From a virus (Duplodnaviria; Caudoviricetes): a stretch of 27,580 nucleotides of DNA. Position numbers and translations under genes: made by a program. The stretch spans positions 1 through 27,580 of the IMG/VR virus record IMGVR_UViG_3300020727_000067; one strand, written 5' to 3'. The notes beneath the pieces are model-generated. The model did not search any database and had not been told where the DNA came from. It saw nothing but the letters and a program-made list of their open reading frames with translations. This document shows, piece after piece, positions 11,128-26,871 of this stretch; position 1 is the first letter of the stretch; the number at the start of each line of letters is the position of its first letter.

Positions 11128-11629
11128 TGCCTTGAACAATGCCCTTAAGAATATCCAAGGTTTCTAAAAGATCACCTTTGTGCAAGATTCCCTTACCGTC
11201 AACATTTTCCCATTCAATGATATTGCTGGGCTTATCATCGATCAGGATATCACCGGTCTTGCAGTGATCCTTTTTGTTCTTGGCAAACGGACCAAAGTGA
11301 ACAGGAATATCCGGGTAATACTTTTGGCCCCATAGCACCTTGTCGTAGAATGCCCAGTGAACATCGTTACCCTTGGGTACAGCAGTTAGGAACAGGAGTT
11401 TGTAATTACGTGTATCCCTAAGGTAACGACAGTATTCGACTAGCGCATCTGCTTCTTTGGTCTTTTCAAGCAGTCCATAGATGCGAGGATCGCGGATAAT
11501 GCTAGACCAAACTTCGTCGGGCCAGCGACCATCTGGAGCAGGCTGTCCGAGGACCTTGCTTGCATAGCCGTCAAAGTCGGCAACTACGCCGTCCATATCA
11601 AGAAAAAGGGTTGCTCGGGTAGTGGTCAT
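11120..11629 (-). CDS. HAD-family phosphatase (5'(3')-deoxyribonucleotidase-like)
   Basis: LFLDMDGVVADF motif I, FLTA motif II, ILIDDKPSNI motif IV. Confidence 0.85.
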   Translation of the reverse strand: MTTTRATLFLDMDGVVADFDGYASKVLGQPAPDGRWPDEVWSSIIRDPRIYGLLEKTKEADALVEYCRYLRDTRNYKLLFLTAVPKGNDVHWAFYDKVLWGQKYYPDIPVHFGPFAKNKKDHCKTGDILIDDKPSNIIEWENVDGKGILHKGDLLETLDILKGIVQGND

Positions 11630-11657
11630 AAAGTTGCTTTCTATATCTGTGTTAAAA

Positions 11658-11665
11658 TATAAATA
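11658..11665 (+). promoter_or_regulatory. T4-type late promoter box for the GIY-YIG gene
   Basis: TATAAATA about 95 nt upstream of ATG 11760. Confidence 0.5.
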
Positions 11666-11666
11666 T

Positions 11667-11695
11667 ATTATACAATTTTTGTTTTATCAAGTCAA
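11667..11695 (-). promoter_or_regulatory. sigma70-type promoter
   Basis: TTGACT-17-TATAAT. Confidence 0.8.
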
Positions 11696-11702
11696 CAAAA
11701 AA

Positions 11703-11759
11703 GTCCTTCGCGGTTCGGCAAAACCCAAGGACACTAACGGTTATAAAGGAACTATCAGC
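11703..11759 (+). promoter_or_regulatory. Structured 5' leader of the endonuclease gene, copy A
   Basis: GTCCTT-CGC-GGTT-loop-AACC-C-AAGGAC followed by ACTAACGGTTATAAAGGAACTATCAGC; same architecture at 18261-18320. Confidence 0.65.
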
Positions 11760-12503
11760 ATGACTATTTATTTGTACGTCAAAACTCACAATAAAACTGG
11801 GTTAAAATATCTCGGAAAAACAGAATCAAAAGATCCGCACAAATATCGAGGATCTGGAAAACGTTGGACCTATCATATCAAAAAGCATGGATATGATGTA
11901 ACTACAGAAATTTTAAAAGAATGTGCAACCGCTCAGGAAGTAACCGAATGGGGAATTTATTATAGTAAATTATGGGATATAGTTAATAGCACCATGTGGG
12001 CCAATTTAACTTTAGAACAAGGATCAGGCGGCAGTATCAATAAAGGGAAAAAATTTGGTCCTTTATCAGATGAACATAAATCTAAAATAAGTCACAAATT
12101 AAAAGGTATATCCCGATCGATCGAATTTAAAAATAAAATTAGTGAATCACATAAAGGTAAAACATTATCATCTGAAACAAAGAAAAAAATTTCAGATTTC
12201 CGAAAGGAGAAATATGTTGGAGAGTTAAATCCGATGTATGGAAAGGTCCATTCAGCTGCCGTGAAAACGGCTTCAGGCATTCGCCGAGCAAAAACGAATT
12301 CTGAAAGAAGTTGGTACAATAACGGCATAGAGACCAGATTTCTTAAAGAATGCCCAGAGGGATGGACTAACGGAAGATTAAACCAGAAACCCACTACACT
12401 GGGAAACAAGTGGTATAATAATGGGGTAATAGCAGTCTGTGCTAAAGAAAAACCATTTGGTAATGAGTGGGTTTCTGGTATGTTACTTAAAAAGAAGCCT
12501 TAA
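11760..12503 (+). mobile_element. Free-standing GIY-YIG (Seg-like) homing endonuclease with NUMOD3-type repeats
   Basis: IYLYVKTHNKTGLKYLGKT...YRGSG...WANL; repeated SxEHKxKIS and NPMYGKVHS; opposite strand and AT-rich; start at ATG 11760 after AAGGA. Confidence 0.85.
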
Positions 12504-18320: not shown

Positions 18321-19103
18321 ATGTATTTACAAAACAAATATACCAAATGTTATGAATTTATTATTAATAATGCAAGAAATAGGATACATGATCCTTCTGA
18401 GTATTACGAAACTCACCACATTTTGCCAAGATGTATGGGAGGATCGAACGAAAGATCAAATTTAATCAAATTAACTGCAAGAGAGCATTTTATTTGTCAC
18501 ATACTTCTTGTAAAAATGGTGAACGATACTGTCATAAGATCAAAATTGTCTTATGCAGCTTGGCAAATGACTATGATAAAAAATAGACCCCGTTATATCC
18601 CAACATCAAAACAATACGAATTTTTACGCAAACAACTATCTAAAAATACAAAAGGTATTCCCAAAACTGAAGAACACAAATTGGCAATGCGTAAACCAAA
18701 ATCTAATACTGAACATATGAAGGGCGGTAAAGGGAGAACTCCCGGATTCACACAATCAGAAGAAGCAAAATTAAAGCTATCACTTAAAATGAAGGGCCGA
18801 TTAGTAGGAGAGAAAAATCCATTTTACGGTAAAACTCATAGTGAAGAAAATCGTAAAAAGTGGAGTGAAATGTTCAAAGGAGTTCCCTTATCGCTTGAAC
18901 ACAAACGTAATATCGGTAATGGTTTAAAAGGAAAACCTACATGGAATAAAGGTATTCCTATGAGTGAGATAGCAAAACAAAAAGCAGGTATATCACTTGC
19001 GGGCAGAATAACCGTTAATAACGGATTAAAAAATAAACGAGTCAGACCCGAAGAGGTTGACTCGTTTATTGTGCAAGGATGGGTTAAGGGAAAATTAATT
19101 TAA
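18321..19103 (+). mobile_element. Free-standing HNH homing endonuclease with NUMOD3-type repeats
   Basis: ETHHILPRCMGGSNERSNLIKLTAREHFICHILL; NPFYGKTHSEE; opposite strand. Confidence 0.88.
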
Positions 19104-20197: not shown

Positions 20198-20647
20198 TTA
20201 CGTAAACGTCTTTAGTGCCTTAATATCGTCACCGATGTTGTCTTCACTAATAGGACCAAGACCAAGACAAGTCGTGGTTGGCTCCGTGAATACAGTGAAT
20301 GCTGCATCAGTTACAAGATGCGTACCGCAGATGTTCTTATACTTTTCCTGGATGGCCCGAAGCTCATCTACAGTATCTACGATAAGAGTAATCTTATAAG
20401 CACGATCGCTATTCGCATAATCATGCGCCTGGTCGATTTTAGATTTCATGATCTCAAGCCGTTCAATGTTTTCTGCATCAGCCTCGACAATGTTATTTTG
20501 ATCCCACCAAGGACCACTATATGGAGTGATAGCATCCCAAAATGCATGAAGCGCCGCGTGTCCTGCTTGTGTACACATTTTACCACGGATACCGTTCATT
20601 TTATCAATACTTTCTTTAGCAAAAATAATATAGATTTTATGTCTCAT
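20198..20647 (-). CDS. pth2: Peptidyl-tRNA hydrolase, Pth2 type
   Basis: GKMCTQAGHA, KITL, VTDAAFTVFTEPTTTCLGLGP match the Pth2 motifs GK-x-x-x-Q-x-x-HA and DAG-x-T...T-x-LG-x-GP. Confidence 0.85.
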   Translation of the reverse strand: MRHKIYIIFAKESIDKMNGIRGKMCTQAGHAALHAFWDAITPYSGPWWDQNNIVEADAENIERLEIMKSKIDQAHDYANSDRAYKITLIVDTVDELRAIQEKYKNICGTHLVTDAAFTVFTEPTTTCLGLGPISEDNIGDDIKALKTFT

Positions 20648-21336
20648 TTGATATCCCTTTTCTTTGCTTCTCTTGCTTTTGCGGCTAATTTCATTTTTTC
20701 TATCGTCTCCGGAGAAAATTTTCTACCGGTCATTTTTTCACTAATCTGATTGCGTTGTTCGGTAGATATTATTTTTCCTTTATGTGCCGCCCCAATTTTT
20801 TTTCGATGTTCGGCAGATTTTTCTTTTCCAGTGAGTGAATTTGATATTTTTAATTTGTGATCTTCGGACTTTTCTTTTCCAGAAAGAGCATCTGATATTT
20901 TTTTTCGATATTCTTCAGAATATATTTTTTGTTTACTTTTATCCCCGATTTGGCGTTTCGTTACTTCTGAATGGGATTTTCCATAGAATCCATTATCTTC
21001 ACCAAATAGCCTAGGACCTGCATCGCCGCCTTCAGAAACATTTAATAAAATTCCTTTTTTATCTCCATAATGTTTGCGTCCAAATTTTTTGATCAACTCA
21101 ATCTCTAACAGAAATGCATCTTCTCTAGAAAGATTATTTTGCCATATCTTGATATATGGTTTAAACCCTAACAATTTAAGTTTTCTTATTTTTCTGAATT
21201 TAAGTCTATTACATGTTGTGTTTTCGGTTTCGAGATAATGATCATAACACCGATTACCTGAACCCATGCCGACATAAAACGGAAGATAAAAATTTGTAGG
21301 ATCGAGTAGTAAATAGACGTAAAAGATGTTTTCCAT
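20644..21336 (-). mobile_element. Free-standing GIY-YIG endonuclease with NUMOD3-type repeats, inserted in pth2
   Basis: FYVYLLLDP...PFYVGMGSGNR...E..LI...LLN; repeated KSEDHKxKIS; late-like GATAAATA at 21342-21349. Confidence 0.85.
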
Positions 21337-21370
21337 AATGTTATTTATCAAAAACAGTTTACTTACACGC

Positions 21371-21445
21371 TTATTGATTACCACGAATGCCGTTCATCTT
21401 CTCTACGCTTTCGCGGGCAAAGATGCAGTACATTTTAATCTTCAT
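21371..21445 (-). pseudogene. Orphaned original N-terminus of pth2 (24 codons)
   Basis: MKIKMYCIFARESVEKMNGIRGNQ* aligns without gaps to the Pth2 N-terminus MRHKIYIIFAKESIDKMNGIRG. Confidence 0.85.
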
Positions 21446-22950: not shown

Positions 22951-22958
22951 GCCCTTTG

Positions 22959-23010
22959 TAAATGCTAGTTTGATCGTTAGTATAGTGTAAAATCTGTTGT
23001 TTGTCAACGG
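22959..23010 (-). repeat. 52-bp promoter-containing direct repeat, copy A
   Basis: 47/52 identical to 23571-23622; contains TTGACA-17-TATACT. Confidence 0.9.
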
Positions 23011-23023
23011 TGTTTGAGGATAT

Positions 23024-23560: not shown

Positions 23561-23815
23561 CTATCCCTTATAAATGCTAGTTTGACCGTTATTATAATAT
23601 AAAATCTGTTGTTTGTCAATGGCCTTTGTCAAACATTCATCGCAGACGGTAATCTCGATGAGTTCACTATAATCCATGGTATCAAAGAAAGTTGATCCAT
23701 AATGGCCATTGGTATTAAACACTGTGGCTTTATAGGGTTGATTGTGTTTACAACCACGATATGCTTCTTCGGGTTGATACCCACATACGATACAAGATAG
23801 CAATTTAGCTGTCAT
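23561..23815 (-). CDS. Small Zn-finger protein
   Basis: CIVC...CDEC; ATGA overlap. Confidence 0.7.
   Translation of the reverse strand: MTAKLLSCIVCGYQPEEAYRGCKHNQPYKATVFNTNGHYGSTFFDTMDYSELIEITVCDECLTKAIDKQQILYYNNGQTSIYKG
23571..23622 (-). repeat. 52-bp promoter-containing direct repeat, copy B
   Basis: Contains TTGACA-17-TATAAT; lies inside the 3' end of the Zn-finger ORF. Confidence 0.9.
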
Positions 23816-24238: not shown

Positions 24239-24559
24239 TGGTGCGCCCGGAGGGACTTGAACCCCCAACCTATCCGTTCAGATTTGTGTAGTTTTCACTA
24301 CTCTCTGGACTATATCATTACCCTCGTCATTACACGTTAGGGTATGGGGCGTTATTGAGAGATTATTGAGAAGGCTTCTCACTCTCTAGTCTCTGCACCT
24401 TCTGGTCTACTTTAATGCCTATTCGACCAGCTTGGCTCAGGATTGCCTTGGACTTTCGTCTTTAGGTTTCCCTGAATTAACCCCATTTGCAATAATATGT
24501 TTCCATATTATGTCACCCTTCGATGAGCGGACAGCTCTGACCAATTGAGCTACAAGCGC
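24239..24559 (-). tRNA. Intron-containing tRNA with CAT anticodon (Ile2 or elongator Met); exons 24523-24559 and 24239-24278
   Basis: Joined exons give GCGCTTG-TA-GCTC-AATTGGTCA-GAGC-T-GTCCG-CTCATAA-CGGAT-AGGTT-GGGGG-TTCAAGT-CCCTC-CGGGCGC-A-CCA. Confidence 0.92.
24279..24522 (-). mobile_element. ORF-less group I intron (IC3-like, 244 nt) after anticodon position 36
   Basis: 5' exon ends in U, intron ends in G; P1 TCAT/GTGA with U-G wobble; P AATTCAGGGAAAC, Q AATCCTGAGC, R GTGCAGAGACTAG, S ATGATATAGTCC. Confidence 0.93.
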
Positions 24560-25184
24560 ATTTGTTAATTTCTTCTTGCACATTATATGCATTATCGTTG
24601 ATCATGTCAACTTCTTTTTTCTTAATTACCAAGATAGGTTTATCAGAATATTTCCATTTAGCTCTGTCTCGATCAGTTTCGTAACCTTTAACTTCGATAT
24701 AGATGTTATCTGCTTCGATTAAGAAATCTGGAAAATATAAATGCCATGAATCATTCCACAAATAAGGAATCGGTTTAATTCCTTTCCTAGTCCATTTTAT
24801 ACCATGCAGGTCTAGATACTGTGCAACTATATATTCCCAAGTACTGTTAAATCTAACTCCATTAACTTCGAAATGTTTAGATCTACCGACTATATTTTTG
24901 TCGGAGTACGATTCTGGATGATCTAATACCGCTTGTTTCATTCTTAGAGATTGTTTTTCTCTATATTCCGGAGTTCTTTGATTTTTAATAGCAGTTTCGG
25001 ATAGTTTCTTTCGAGTTTCTTCAGATAACGGTGGTTGAGACAGTCTTATTTTACTCTGTTTCTGTTTATATTCGTCAGTTTCCCAAAAACCTGGGATCCT
25101 ATTTGGATTTTGAGAGCAACTTTTTGAGTGTACAGTTACTCTGCTTTTTACAGTAAATGCTCTATTACAATATTCACAATTCAT
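24513..25184 (-). mobile_element. PD-(D/E)XK (TnsA-like) endonuclease with N-terminal Zn finger
   Basis: CEYC...H...C; NSTWE, YFPDF, IEVKG; TATAAATA at 25201-25208. Confidence 0.8.
24582..24610 (-). promoter_or_regulatory. sigma70-type promoter for the intron-containing tRNA, embedded in the endonuclease ORF
   Basis: Perfect TTGACA-17-TATAAT. Confidence 0.8.
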
Positions 25185-25235
25185 AAAATTTCTCTTGTAG
25201 TATTTATAAATTGTAATTAAAAGAGCGGTTAGCTT

Positions 25236-25393: not shown

Positions 25394-25481
25394 TGGTGCG
25401 GGCTACCGGACTCGAACCGGTACGGAACTAAATCCACGAGATTTTAAGTCTCGCGCGGCTTACCAATTTCGCCACGCCCGC
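25394..25481 (-). tRNA. tRNA-Leu(TAA)
   Basis: CGAGA-CTTAAAA-TCTCG, long variable arm, CCA. Confidence 0.92.
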
Positions 25482-25498
25482 ATGTACTCATATTTATT

Positions 25499-25534
25499 TG
25501 GCGGAAGCGGTGAGATTCGAACTCACGGATCTCA
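25499..25534 (-). pseudogene. 3' remnant of a split tRNA-Ser
   Basis: GTGAG-TTCGAAT-CTCAC-CGCTTCC-G-CCA; the acceptor strand pairs 7/7 with GGAAGCG at 26324-26330. Confidence 0.85.
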
Positions 25535-25543
25535 CAAAGTATA

Positions 25544-25629
25544 TGGCGGAGTGTGATAGCATCGAACTATATACCTGAAGGTATCTACTGCTTTCGAAAC
25601 AGCGTGAGGAGCCAACCTCAGCACACTCC
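25544..25629 (-). tRNA. Non-canonical 8/4 tRNA-Ser(CGA)
   Basis: 8-bp acceptor GGAGTGTG/CACACTCC, 4-bp T stem ATAG/CTAT, D stem TGAGG/CCTCA, loop TT-CGA-AA, variable arm ATACC-TTCA-GGTAT, G73, CCA. Confidence 0.85.
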
Positions 25630-25631
25630 GT

Positions 25632-26270
25632 CTAGTCATAAAGATTAATAAATTGTTTCCCATAGTTAGTAGTGACATAATCCAATATAGGTCTCATTTC
25701 TTTTTCATAAAGAACGATAATATCAGGATTTTGTGATAGTTTTGCTTCCCATTGGGGTGTGATCCATCCCTTAATTTCTACTAATTTAGAATCAACAATA
25801 AAATCTGGTGTATAACTTTTGATTTGATCTTCAAAGATATATGATCGTTTTTCAGTGTTTCTTTTAATGTCAATTTTGTGATCTAAACAATATATCACAT
25901 AAGCAAGTTCCCAGCTACTATCGCACCAAAATCCTTTATATCGACCAGATTTACCTCGGCCACTACCGCGTTTATAACCACCATTTCCTTGGGTTTTCGC
26001 CCAAATACTTCGTTGCTTTCGTTCTTTATCTGTCCATAATCGTCCCGGCCTGCCTATTTTTGATATAGATAAAGATTCAGCGCCTTTTAATACCCTTCTA
26101 TCGGAATCTTTAGTCAATCCCTTATTCCAAGGTATTACTCCCTTTTTAGCACCGGCGTTTGGTGATATTTTTCGTTGCACACGCGAGGGATTTAATTTGC
26201 AATATGGCCAATGACCACCTAGTGCACCACTATTACTGAACGTTCTATTACAAAATTTACATAGTATCAT
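25632..26270 (-). mobile_element. PD-(D/E)XK (TnsA-like) endonuclease with N-terminal Zn finger
   Basis: CKFC...H...C; DSSWE, YTPDF, VEIKG; start at MILCKFC just after TATAAATA (26276-26283). Confidence 0.8.
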
Positions 26271-26291
26271 GCAGGTATTTATACAAAATAA

Positions 26292-26330
26292 TCGAATGCA
26301 GTGCAATCAGCCGGGCTCTGCCACGCTTCC
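26292..26330 (-). pseudogene. 5' remnant of a split canonical tRNA-Ser(CGA)
   Basis: GGAAGCG-TG-GCAGAGCCCGGCTGATTGC-A-CTGCA-TT-CGA, then AT-rich non-tRNA sequence. Confidence 0.85.
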
Positions 26331-26336
26331 TAAATT

Positions 26337-26422
26337 TGGTGCCCAGGACTGGACTCGAACCAGCACGGACGTTAGTCCACTAGCCCCTCAAGCTAGCGCG
26401 GCTACCATTACACCACCTGGGC
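26337..26422 (-). tRNA. tRNA-Leu(GAG)
   Basis: CTAGC-TTGAGGG-GCTAG, long variable arm, CCA. Confidence 0.92.
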
Positions 26423-26424
26423 AA

Positions 26425-26871
26425 TTAAGTAAGTAAATATTTTAGGGCCTTTGCATCCCACCAGGCATTGTGTTGCACAGCACCATCTAGCGTAGTAGGA
26501 TATGCGTTAACACGAACCATGTGGAACGTTACCTGCGGAATGTTAATCATCATTCCTGGACCAGTTATGATAGCTTGACAAAAATAACGAATGTCATCGG
26601 GCCAATCCGTAATGATAACCGGAGCAGGATCTCCTGCAAGGAACTGCGCAATTTGCCTTGCGCCTGATTCCTGATCAACAGTGTATGCCATTCCTGGCAA
26701 TGGGTTAGGTATGTTCCAGATAATCGGAACTACATTTTCTTTGACCCATGGACCGTATTCTTCAAGTTCGGGATAGACTAGATAAATGCTTTCATTGTCC
26801 TCGCTTACAAGCGCAAGACTAATTAGGTCTCCGCCAAACTCGTTGAATTCGCAATCTAAATAATACTGCAC
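26425..26871 (-). CDS. DEDD-family 3'-5' exoribonuclease-like protein
   Basis: YLDCEF, LISLALV, TDWPDD, HNAWWDA. Confidence 0.75.
   Translation of the reverse strand: MQYYLDCEFNEFGGDLISLALVSEDNESIYLVYPELEEYGPWVKENVVPIIWNIPNPLPGMAYTVDQESGARQIAQFLAGDPAPVIITDWPDDIRYFCQAIITGPGMMINIPQVTFHMVRVNAYPTTLDGAVQHNAWWDAKALKYLLT

Follow-up and report, generated by a model that had tools for sequence, protein, structure and literature searches.

A nuclease gene and a second tRNA-Ser(CGA) gene inside a split phage tRNA-Ser(CGA) gene

How does a phage tRNA gene come to lie in two pieces, with a nuclease gene and a second, complete tRNA gene of the same anticodon between them? The question arises from a locus in a 27.6-kb piece of a phage genome (27,580 nt; the whole stretch analysed is hereafter called the window), for which CheckV gives a completeness of 8%. 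The phage is present in freshwater runs and no cultured close relative of it was found; a complete 360-kb relative, G003, has genes of the tRNA region in common with the window.

Anatomy of the split locus

On the minus strand, the locus reads tRNA-Leu(GAG), 7 nt, a tRNA 5' half, the motif TATAAATA, an ORF, an intact tRNA and a 3' piece. A cassette of 764 bp, consisting of a late-promoter motif, a gene for a predicted nuclease and an intact 8/4 tRNA-Ser(CGA), replaces 22 bases of a canonical tRNA-Ser(CGA):

26292..26330, minus strand: 5' half of the original 7/5 tRNA-Ser(CGA), 39 nt, ending after the anticodon; no differences from the allele in record 28 of run X9
26276..26283, minus strand: TATAAATA late-promoter motif, 5 nt before the nuclease ATG
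25632..26270, minus strand: gene for a 212-aa nuclease, ATG at 26270, stop at 25634-25632
25544..25629, minus strand: intact (8/4) tRNA-Ser(CGA), 86 nt, beginning 2 nt past the nuclease stop codon
25528..25543, minus strand: 16-nt spacer with no in-register match (by eye) to the empty allele
25499..25527, minus strand: 3' remnant left from the original tRNA, with T arm, acceptor strand and GCCA, bounded by the joint position in runs X5, X6 and X9

The 5' half (26330-26292) consists of a 7-nt acceptor strand, a canonical D arm, a 5-nt anticodon-stem strand, TT and CGA and, as the first-pass annotation had read it, stops directly after the anticodon. The 3' piece with its T arm is equally real, and its acceptor strand forms 7/7 Watson-Crick pairs with the 5' half; the span originally given to it (25499-25534) began a few bases too far out, and its start was moved to 25527 because 25543-25528 lacks an in-register match to the empty allele. 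This spacer is possibly a decayed variable arm. The description of the tRNA between the halves (25629-25544) as intact, of the same anticodon and unrelated in sequence also stands, as it has no BLASTN likeness to either half. About 3 kb upstream, the phage retains an intact canonical tRNA-Ser(UGA) of its own, which differs from the target at 10 anticodon-arm positions; the cassette therefore sits on the CGA isoacceptor. Upstream of the window in the same genome (L001, ~790-915), a tRNA-like sequence of ~130 nt with paired ends and CCA lies between tRNA-Leu(CAA) and tRNA-Val(GAC), where ARAGORN makes no call.

The motif TATAAATA, a T4-type late promoter motif, occurs five times in the window, four of them at the starts of nuclease genes, and the nuclease transcript made from it is probably a leaderless late transcript. 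Across the nuclease family, the distance from the end of ATAAATA to the ATG is 4-5 nt in 21/87 clusters and 16-41 nt in 27/87, which suggests both leaderless and leadered late transcripts. Two homing-endonuclease genes on the opposite strand of the window (11622-12503 and 18321-19103, both plus) each have the motif near their start. Elsewhere at gene starts, a 64-nt direct repeat (22953-23016 and 23565-23628, 86% identical) looks like a duplicated promoter.

The nuclease has an N-terminal C2HC zinc finger, a basic linker and a C-terminal PD-(D/E)XK-type domain, in which the PD...(D/E)xK motif is accompanied by an upstream helix glutamate. Among 576 candidates, 525 are homologs at E ≤0.001; in the 42 members that were aligned, E121, P155-D156 and E165-x-K167 are invariant (42/42), and the C-x2-C...H...C zinc finger and GGY..GSGRG linker are invariant or nearly so. 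PHROGs annotates the protein as an endonuclease, Pfam matches fall below cut-off (PF05367, sub-cut-off in 4/42) and the Atlas neighbours are Phage_endo_I and TnsA-like clusters, so that, to judge from sequence, its nearest families would be DNases. The structural model (pLDDT 84) is confident in both domains and shows a C-terminal order of helix, three strands, helix and strand, and a PDB sequence search returned weak zinc-finger matches only. In a tree built by a quick method and poorly resolved, the window enzyme falls among Ser(UGA) enzymes with no sister and away from L098 and L039 (same 8/4 family), and three Ile(GAU) cases group together (support 87).

The intact tRNA, hereafter the spare, has an 8-bp acceptor, a 4-bp T stem, a long variable arm, G73, CCA and the anticodon CGA; its fold has a z-score of -3.6, with none of 200 shuffles as good, and it is missed by both ARAGORN and Rfam. 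It is a member of the (8/4) allo-tRNA-Ser family described by Mukai et al. (2017), which is delimited by a long variable arm, G73 or U73 and a serine anticodon, and a gene of the same family appears in the supplement table (PMC5389517). That text reports allo-tRNA genes from phage tRNA clusters and, for other allo-tRNAs, serine charging and use in translation (PMC5389517). In IMG/VR, 40 matches to the spare represent 24 distinct genes, of which 22 are free-standing and two lie behind a family nuclease; the nearest ones, in G002 and G003, are 88% identical, likewise have the anticodon CGA and stand alone, no nuclease of the family preceding them. As the 8/4 family is mostly free-standing, an existing gene appears to have been captured by the cassette. 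Compared with the target, the spare is changed at 10/10 anticodon-stem positions and its D arm is non-canonical; the 7-nt loop is kept. A34 anticodons (AGA, ACT), which are unusual in bacteria, occur in serine-type phage tRNA genes of L026, L369, L372, L178, L188 and L198.

Relatives with an intact canonical tRNA at this locus, which the first-pass annotation had proposed to look for, were found when four runs were compared with the region. Contigs of X6 and X9 join 26292 to 25527 via 22 other letters, which by eye supply the rest of the loop from position 37, a stem strand pairing 5/5 with that of the window and the variable arm, and the joined allele is a canonical 7/5 tRNA-Ser(CGA). Because these contigs hold both halves in one intact gene, the pairing of the halves is not due to chance, and the halves derive from one tRNA-Ser(CGA) and not from two. 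An origin from a Ser(UGA) gene had been suspected, since among 120 intact viral genes sharing these two ends 104 are of this type and 3 are CGA; the X6 and X9 alleles overturned it.

On their short side the joints comprise 26-29 letters, and they were detected at 88% likeness; matches in this range often come from other organisms, and synteny therefore carries the argument for an empty allele. The X9 contig (record 28) matches the 5' half at 40/40 positions, has 316 other letters in place of most of the tRNA-Leu and continues into the RNase-H-like neighbour gene with 34 differences in 328 nt (~90% identical). An X5 contig (record 14) is continuous through tRNA-Leu(GAG), with 37 differences from the window in 618 nt (94% identical), and holds a second intact Ser(CGA) allele with a different anticodon stem. 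Both are credible because the same contigs run into the RNase-H-like neighbour. The empty alleles thus come from relatives ~90-94% identical in the neighbour gene, that is, from strains other than that of the window. X5 also contains exact pieces of the cassette, X6 and X9 have no cover over the nuclease gene, and the co-occurrence of stem variant and cassette in one run is one case only. A 993-nt contig of run X2 spans 25499-26490 without a difference to the window, so the filled locus is not an assembly artefact. The cassette is optional among relatives with homologous flanks. Joints with a UGA loop in X4, X13 and one in X5 proved to be similar-ended Ser(UGA) genes of other phages and were not counted, and a scan with a guessed intact arm gave 71 matches, including one canonical Ser(CGA) elsewhere (L584) and none that is syntenic.

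Recurrence of the layout

The nuclease family comprises 172 loci in 94 clusters at 90% identity; a genome-contig search gave 17 loci, all on MAG contigs, and a neighbour-gene search gave 76 loci that served as a tRNA library. A 5' half-tRNA lies upstream of the nuclease in 40/90 clusters compared with 5/150 control ORFs (p=3e-15), two of the 40 (L044, L072) being intact odd tRNAs that were left out of the junction analysis. In 27/27 UGA- or CGA-type 5' halves, tRNA likeness is lost at positions 35-37, by a score that is anchored at 35 and tests whether the tRNA fails to continue. At the other end, a tRNA lies at or inside the end of the ORF in at least 60/94 clusters (49 of them Ser(UGA)), a lower bound since the automatic caller overlooked spares visible by eye in L002, L012, L020, L049, L069, L103, L117, L132 and L157. 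By eye, other targets are Ser(GGA), Ile(GAU), Phe(GAA) and Gln(UUG), the last being the reading of L020. Five control ORFs of other families also have upstream tRNA 5' halves (Leu, Val, Met) and are candidates for further cassettes or introns (L059:2669, L037:1177, L152:876, L123:506 and L024:3266).

A 3' remnant at the same locus pairs 7/7 with the 5' half in 10/28 loci, compared with 14/297 cross-locus pairs (11 by script, L117 being dropped as an intact duplicate). Eight of these ten have a spare between the halves and two do not; L136 and L163, with both halves and no spare, count against the rescue reading. At 2/16 loci the dead half is a better pairing partner for the 3' strand of the spare than the spare's own 5' strand is, which looks as though just a new 5' half had been delivered, and L014 and L134 hold chimeric tRNAs. 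The layout thus recurs in many phages and, as set out below, with other nuclease domains, in line with the general class that had been proposed. Its recurrence with an 8/4 tRNA was also anticipated; as a rule this is not borne out, since 8/4 geometry is found in 16/50 spares.

The window itself contains two further cassettes:

24239..25208, minus strand (taken more widely, 24239-25235): second cassette of the same kind, a late promoter and a paralogous zinc-finger PD-(D/E)XK nuclease
20198..21445, minus strand: third cassette, a pth2 stub, a GIY-YIG/NUMOD3 nuclease and a pth2 gene with a recoded 5' part

The second nuclease (24513-25184, minus) is 24% identical to that of the Ser cassette, and its end reaches into a tRNA-Met(CAU) gene, where it overlaps both the 5' exon and a group I intron (Rfam, 24286-24534). 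Its promoter is preceded by a short decayed sequence that looks like the 5' strand of the Met anticodon stem; G003 has an intronless tRNA-Met, and contigs in X6 and X9 skip the intron. At the third, the pth2 5' stub (21445-21378) is 94% identical to the intact pth2 of G003 (L528:3970-4347), which represents the empty allele. The claim that pth2 follows the same logic holds for the plan of the insertion and not for its cargo, as just a recoded 5' part is brought and not a whole gene. One genome shows three modes of rescue: a whole unrelated gene, an intron and a recoded fragment. Among cultured phages, PhaxI has 27 nt of a tRNA-Met, a nuclease (a 29%-identical homolog) and a different tRNA-Met where BSP101 has an intact gene, with flanks 96-98% identical, and in Citrobacter phage CkP1 the two halves of a tRNA-Met flank a Met-type homolog (L705:2518-3153), apparently with no spare between them.

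An HNH protein of G003 is 43% identical to the window enzyme over the first 54 residues only, and its gene lies behind a decayed 5' half and before a tRNA-Ser(UGA). Among 61 distinct HNH relatives, 9/10 with the shared N-terminal domain and 9/51 without it are followed by Ser(UGA), neighbours being called by ARAGORN, by which 8/4 genes may be missed. The zinc-finger N-terminal domain is likely a targeting module, swappable between cutters. In the cultured Karamviruses KKP_3262 and EnA02, a zinc-finger HNH gene precedes a Ser(UGA) gene whose sole difference from the empty KaAlpha allele is a swap of two stem pairs, that is, of four bases in the anticodon stem; no 5' half lies upstream. EnC15 has a GIY-YIG gene at the same spot and keeps the usual stem. 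In this comparison of 30 Karamvirus-like phages, with the stem read in eight, the swapped stem also occurs in four Karamviruses without the zinc-finger HNH nuclease, which weakens the link between stem and nuclease.

Spares, targets and explanations

What distinguishes spares from targets? A canonical D arm is found in 9/50 spares compared with 74/107 background Ser(UGA) genes (p=2e-9), and its non-canonical counterpart (41/50 compared with 33/107) is a stronger signal than 8/4 geometry (16/50 compared with 9/107, with geometry ambiguous in 10/50 spares). The background set was preselected for the usual anticodon stem and was therefore used for D arm and geometry only. Among genes with a canonical D arm, the usual G30-T31/A39-C40 pairs are present by eye in 3/9 spares and 74/82 canonical genes (p=3e-4), and swapped stem pairs beside the loop in 6/9 and 8/82, respectively. 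None of 18 target-spare pairs has one or no difference in the last 10 nt, compared with 13.7% of target-background pairs. Spares are as far from their own target as from targets at other loci (3.67 and 3.68 mismatches in 10 nt), so there is no sign of a spare being tuned to its particular target. In many spares the GTCTTG of the target is retained just before the junction, which counts against immunity.

Elsewhere, targets may themselves be of spare type (L151, L152, L157, L046 and L048), and in L157 a gene of the window's own 8/4 type is the split victim. As targets are diverse and some are of spare type, one fixed recognition sequence cannot cover the family. At L117 a near-duplicate is carried as the spare, and even there the anticodon stem differs. 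That the 8/4 shape is itself the principle of immunity is contradicted by its minority among spares, by the 22 of 24 genes of the window spare's family that are free-standing and by the victim in L157. The shape would be a passenger, the role of spare being open to every serine tRNA lineage that differs from the target.

Relatives keep the gene unbroken at the same spot, and the cassette is therefore likely a selfish element. We consider it probable that it constitutes a homing endonuclease of the free-standing type with a carried spare, which would spread by cutting the intact gene and whose spare probably goes unrecognised. Starting from the observed anatomy, empty alleles and recurrence, we infer cutting, site, immunity, drive and tRNA function as follows. 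In a mixed infection, the nuclease would be made late from the TATAAATA promoter; its zinc-finger N-terminal domain would bind a site that begins in the D arm and extends across the anticodon stem, and the DNA would be cut by the PD-(D/E)XK domain at or next to the anticodon. Recombination repair would then copy the cassette, for which the dead 5' half would provide homology on the left and either the 3' remnant or downstream DNA homology on the right. Across the family the left edge is fixed and the right edge ragged, which is consistent with cutting at the anticodon and subsequent resection. The spare would keep decoding through its 7-nt loop and escape cutting through its 10 changed stem positions and non-canonical D arm, and the halves would be dead, with no rejoining.

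Homing may also be right without the spare being immune in sequence: cassettes in which the spare looks like the 5' half would recombine out, so that those with dissimilar spares alone persist, and self-cutting would be limited by late, weak expression. This account, compatible with homing, would explain the absence of pairwise tuning and the near-duplicate spare in L117, and a precedent is available in the accessible text on SegB, where T4's own tRNA genes contain SegB sites and are cut in vitro (PMC2330249). We nevertheless regard it as unlikely: KKP_3262 and EnA02 have the swapped stem despite having no 5' half with which to recombine, the L117 duplicate still differs in the anticodon stem, and the usual stem pairs are underrepresented among spares with a canonical D arm.

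A benefit to the phage, which does not exclude homing, seems more doubtful again. Here the 8/4 tRNA would resist a host defence that cuts canonical tRNA-Ser(CGA), with the nuclease as vehicle or idle. SegB is described, in the text available, as amplifying a tRNA gene against a tRNA-cutting defence (PMC13096335), and G002 and G003 use their free-standing 8/4 gene as Ser(CGA) with no nuclease of the family in front; against this, 8/4 geometry is lacking in two thirds of spares, 8/4 genes can themselves be victims (L157), and pth2, which is not a tRNA gene, is split by the same layout.

It is very improbable that the enzyme is an RNA anticodon nuclease directed at the tRNA-Ser(CGA) of hosts or rivals, that the 8/4 tRNA serves as its antitoxin and that the broken gene is a by-product. 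Allo-tRNA genes often lie near toxin-antitoxin systems, according to the available text (PMC5389517), but the nearest families of the nuclease are DNases with zinc-finger or NUMOD3-type modules, and an RNase would leave the fixed DNA junction at the anticodon and the optional presence of the cassette unexplained. Despite a real group I intron in tRNA-Met 1 kb away, an intron or integrase-type element, with the halves joined again at the RNA level or made whole by a duplicated end, is largely refuted, as a search of 25480-26345 with intron models gave no match even at E 10 (which places the ORF outside any intron or intein), the 34 window ORFs include no integrase, no duplicated att core or BLASTN likeness of spare to halves was found at the locus, and 22 exon bases are lost, so that splicing could not rebuild the tRNA.

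Comparison with known systems

The closest known systems to the preferred reading, a homing endonuclease with a carried spare, are the T4 free-standing homing endonucleases. SegB, SegF, SegG, MobA and MobE of T4-like phages ('intronless homing') are, in the parts of the sources available, optional non-intron nuclease genes with their own late promoter and an empty allele in relatives, like the cassette (PMC2988022, PMC2330249). SegB likewise cuts tRNA genes of related phages, but is a GIY-YIG enzyme located between tRNA genes that recognises a T-loop motif near the 3' end (PMC2330249), and both its domain and its intergenic position are absent from the Ser cassette. MobA and MobE split host genes, but leave two working half-proteins (PMC2988022). 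Unlike in all of these, the nuclease here lies inside the gene at the anticodon, part of the gene is deleted, and a complete, unrelated gene of the same anticodon follows.

The (8/4) allo-tRNA-Ser of Mukai et al. shares acceptor, T stem, variable arm and G73 with the spare (PMC5389517). It differs in that the window's 8/4 gene is cargo of a nuclease cassette; the supplement of that paper gave no match to 'endonuclease', and its available text draws no link to a nuclease (PMC5389517). In collaborative homing, a free-standing nuclease acts with an ORF-less intron, which fits the second cassette of the window (PMC2988022, in the part available); there an intron protects, whereas at the Ser cassette a different gene sequence would do so. 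Mobile group I introns differ in that the cassette has no intron core around its ORF and has lost exon sequence. A group I intron in a cyanobacterial tRNA-fMet gene encodes the PD-(D/E)XK homing endonuclease I-Ssp6803I, whose target is at the anticodon loop. This enzyme is alike in the class of its catalytic motif and in its tRNA-gene anticodon-loop target, but is intron-encoded, with splicing restoring the gene, and no sequence likeness of the window enzyme to it was found. Fungal mitochondrial homing-endonuclease genes (atp6, rps3) carry a replacement end of the invaded gene, and integrative elements restore a tRNA gene via attP. Both break a gene and mend it with carried sequence, and they come nearest to the pth2 insertion and the L014 and L134 chimeras; what they supply is a homologous fragment, whereas the Ser cassette brings an entire gene of different structure and has no integrase. 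Truncated atp9 copies beside a LAGLIDADG ORF are described in the accessible part of a further source (PMC6506933). A literature search that covered few subscription papers found no published case of a nuclease splitting a tRNA gene and bringing a substitute with it.

Tentatively, phage tRNA arrays could be an arena of a large class of cut-and-rescue gene drives, in which a portable zinc-finger module on PD-(D/E)XK or HNH cutters is retargeted among Ser (UGA, CGA, GGA), Ile, Phe, Gln and Met genes, resident tRNA genes are repeatedly exchanged for lineages that escape cutting and spares later become targets; this might be a main reason for the 8/4 and odd-D-arm tRNAs of phages. The locus offers a testable selfish-DNA account of non-canonical phage tRNAs and mosaic tRNA arrays. 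Annotation tools overlook both the broken gene and the spare. Cultured pairs with and without the insert are at hand in PhaxI/BSP101 and KKP_3262/KaAlpha, and the locus supplies a natural target, a natural stem variant and a spare for direct comparison. The locus is real and probably a variant of the free-standing homing endonucleases; it contributes that target together with its variant, a change of isoacceptor to CGA, cargo in the form of an 8/4 tRNA, and evidence that the targeting domain can be swapped. Beyond introns and inteins, it would represent a third way for a homing nuclease to reside inside a useful gene, by carrying a whole substitute.
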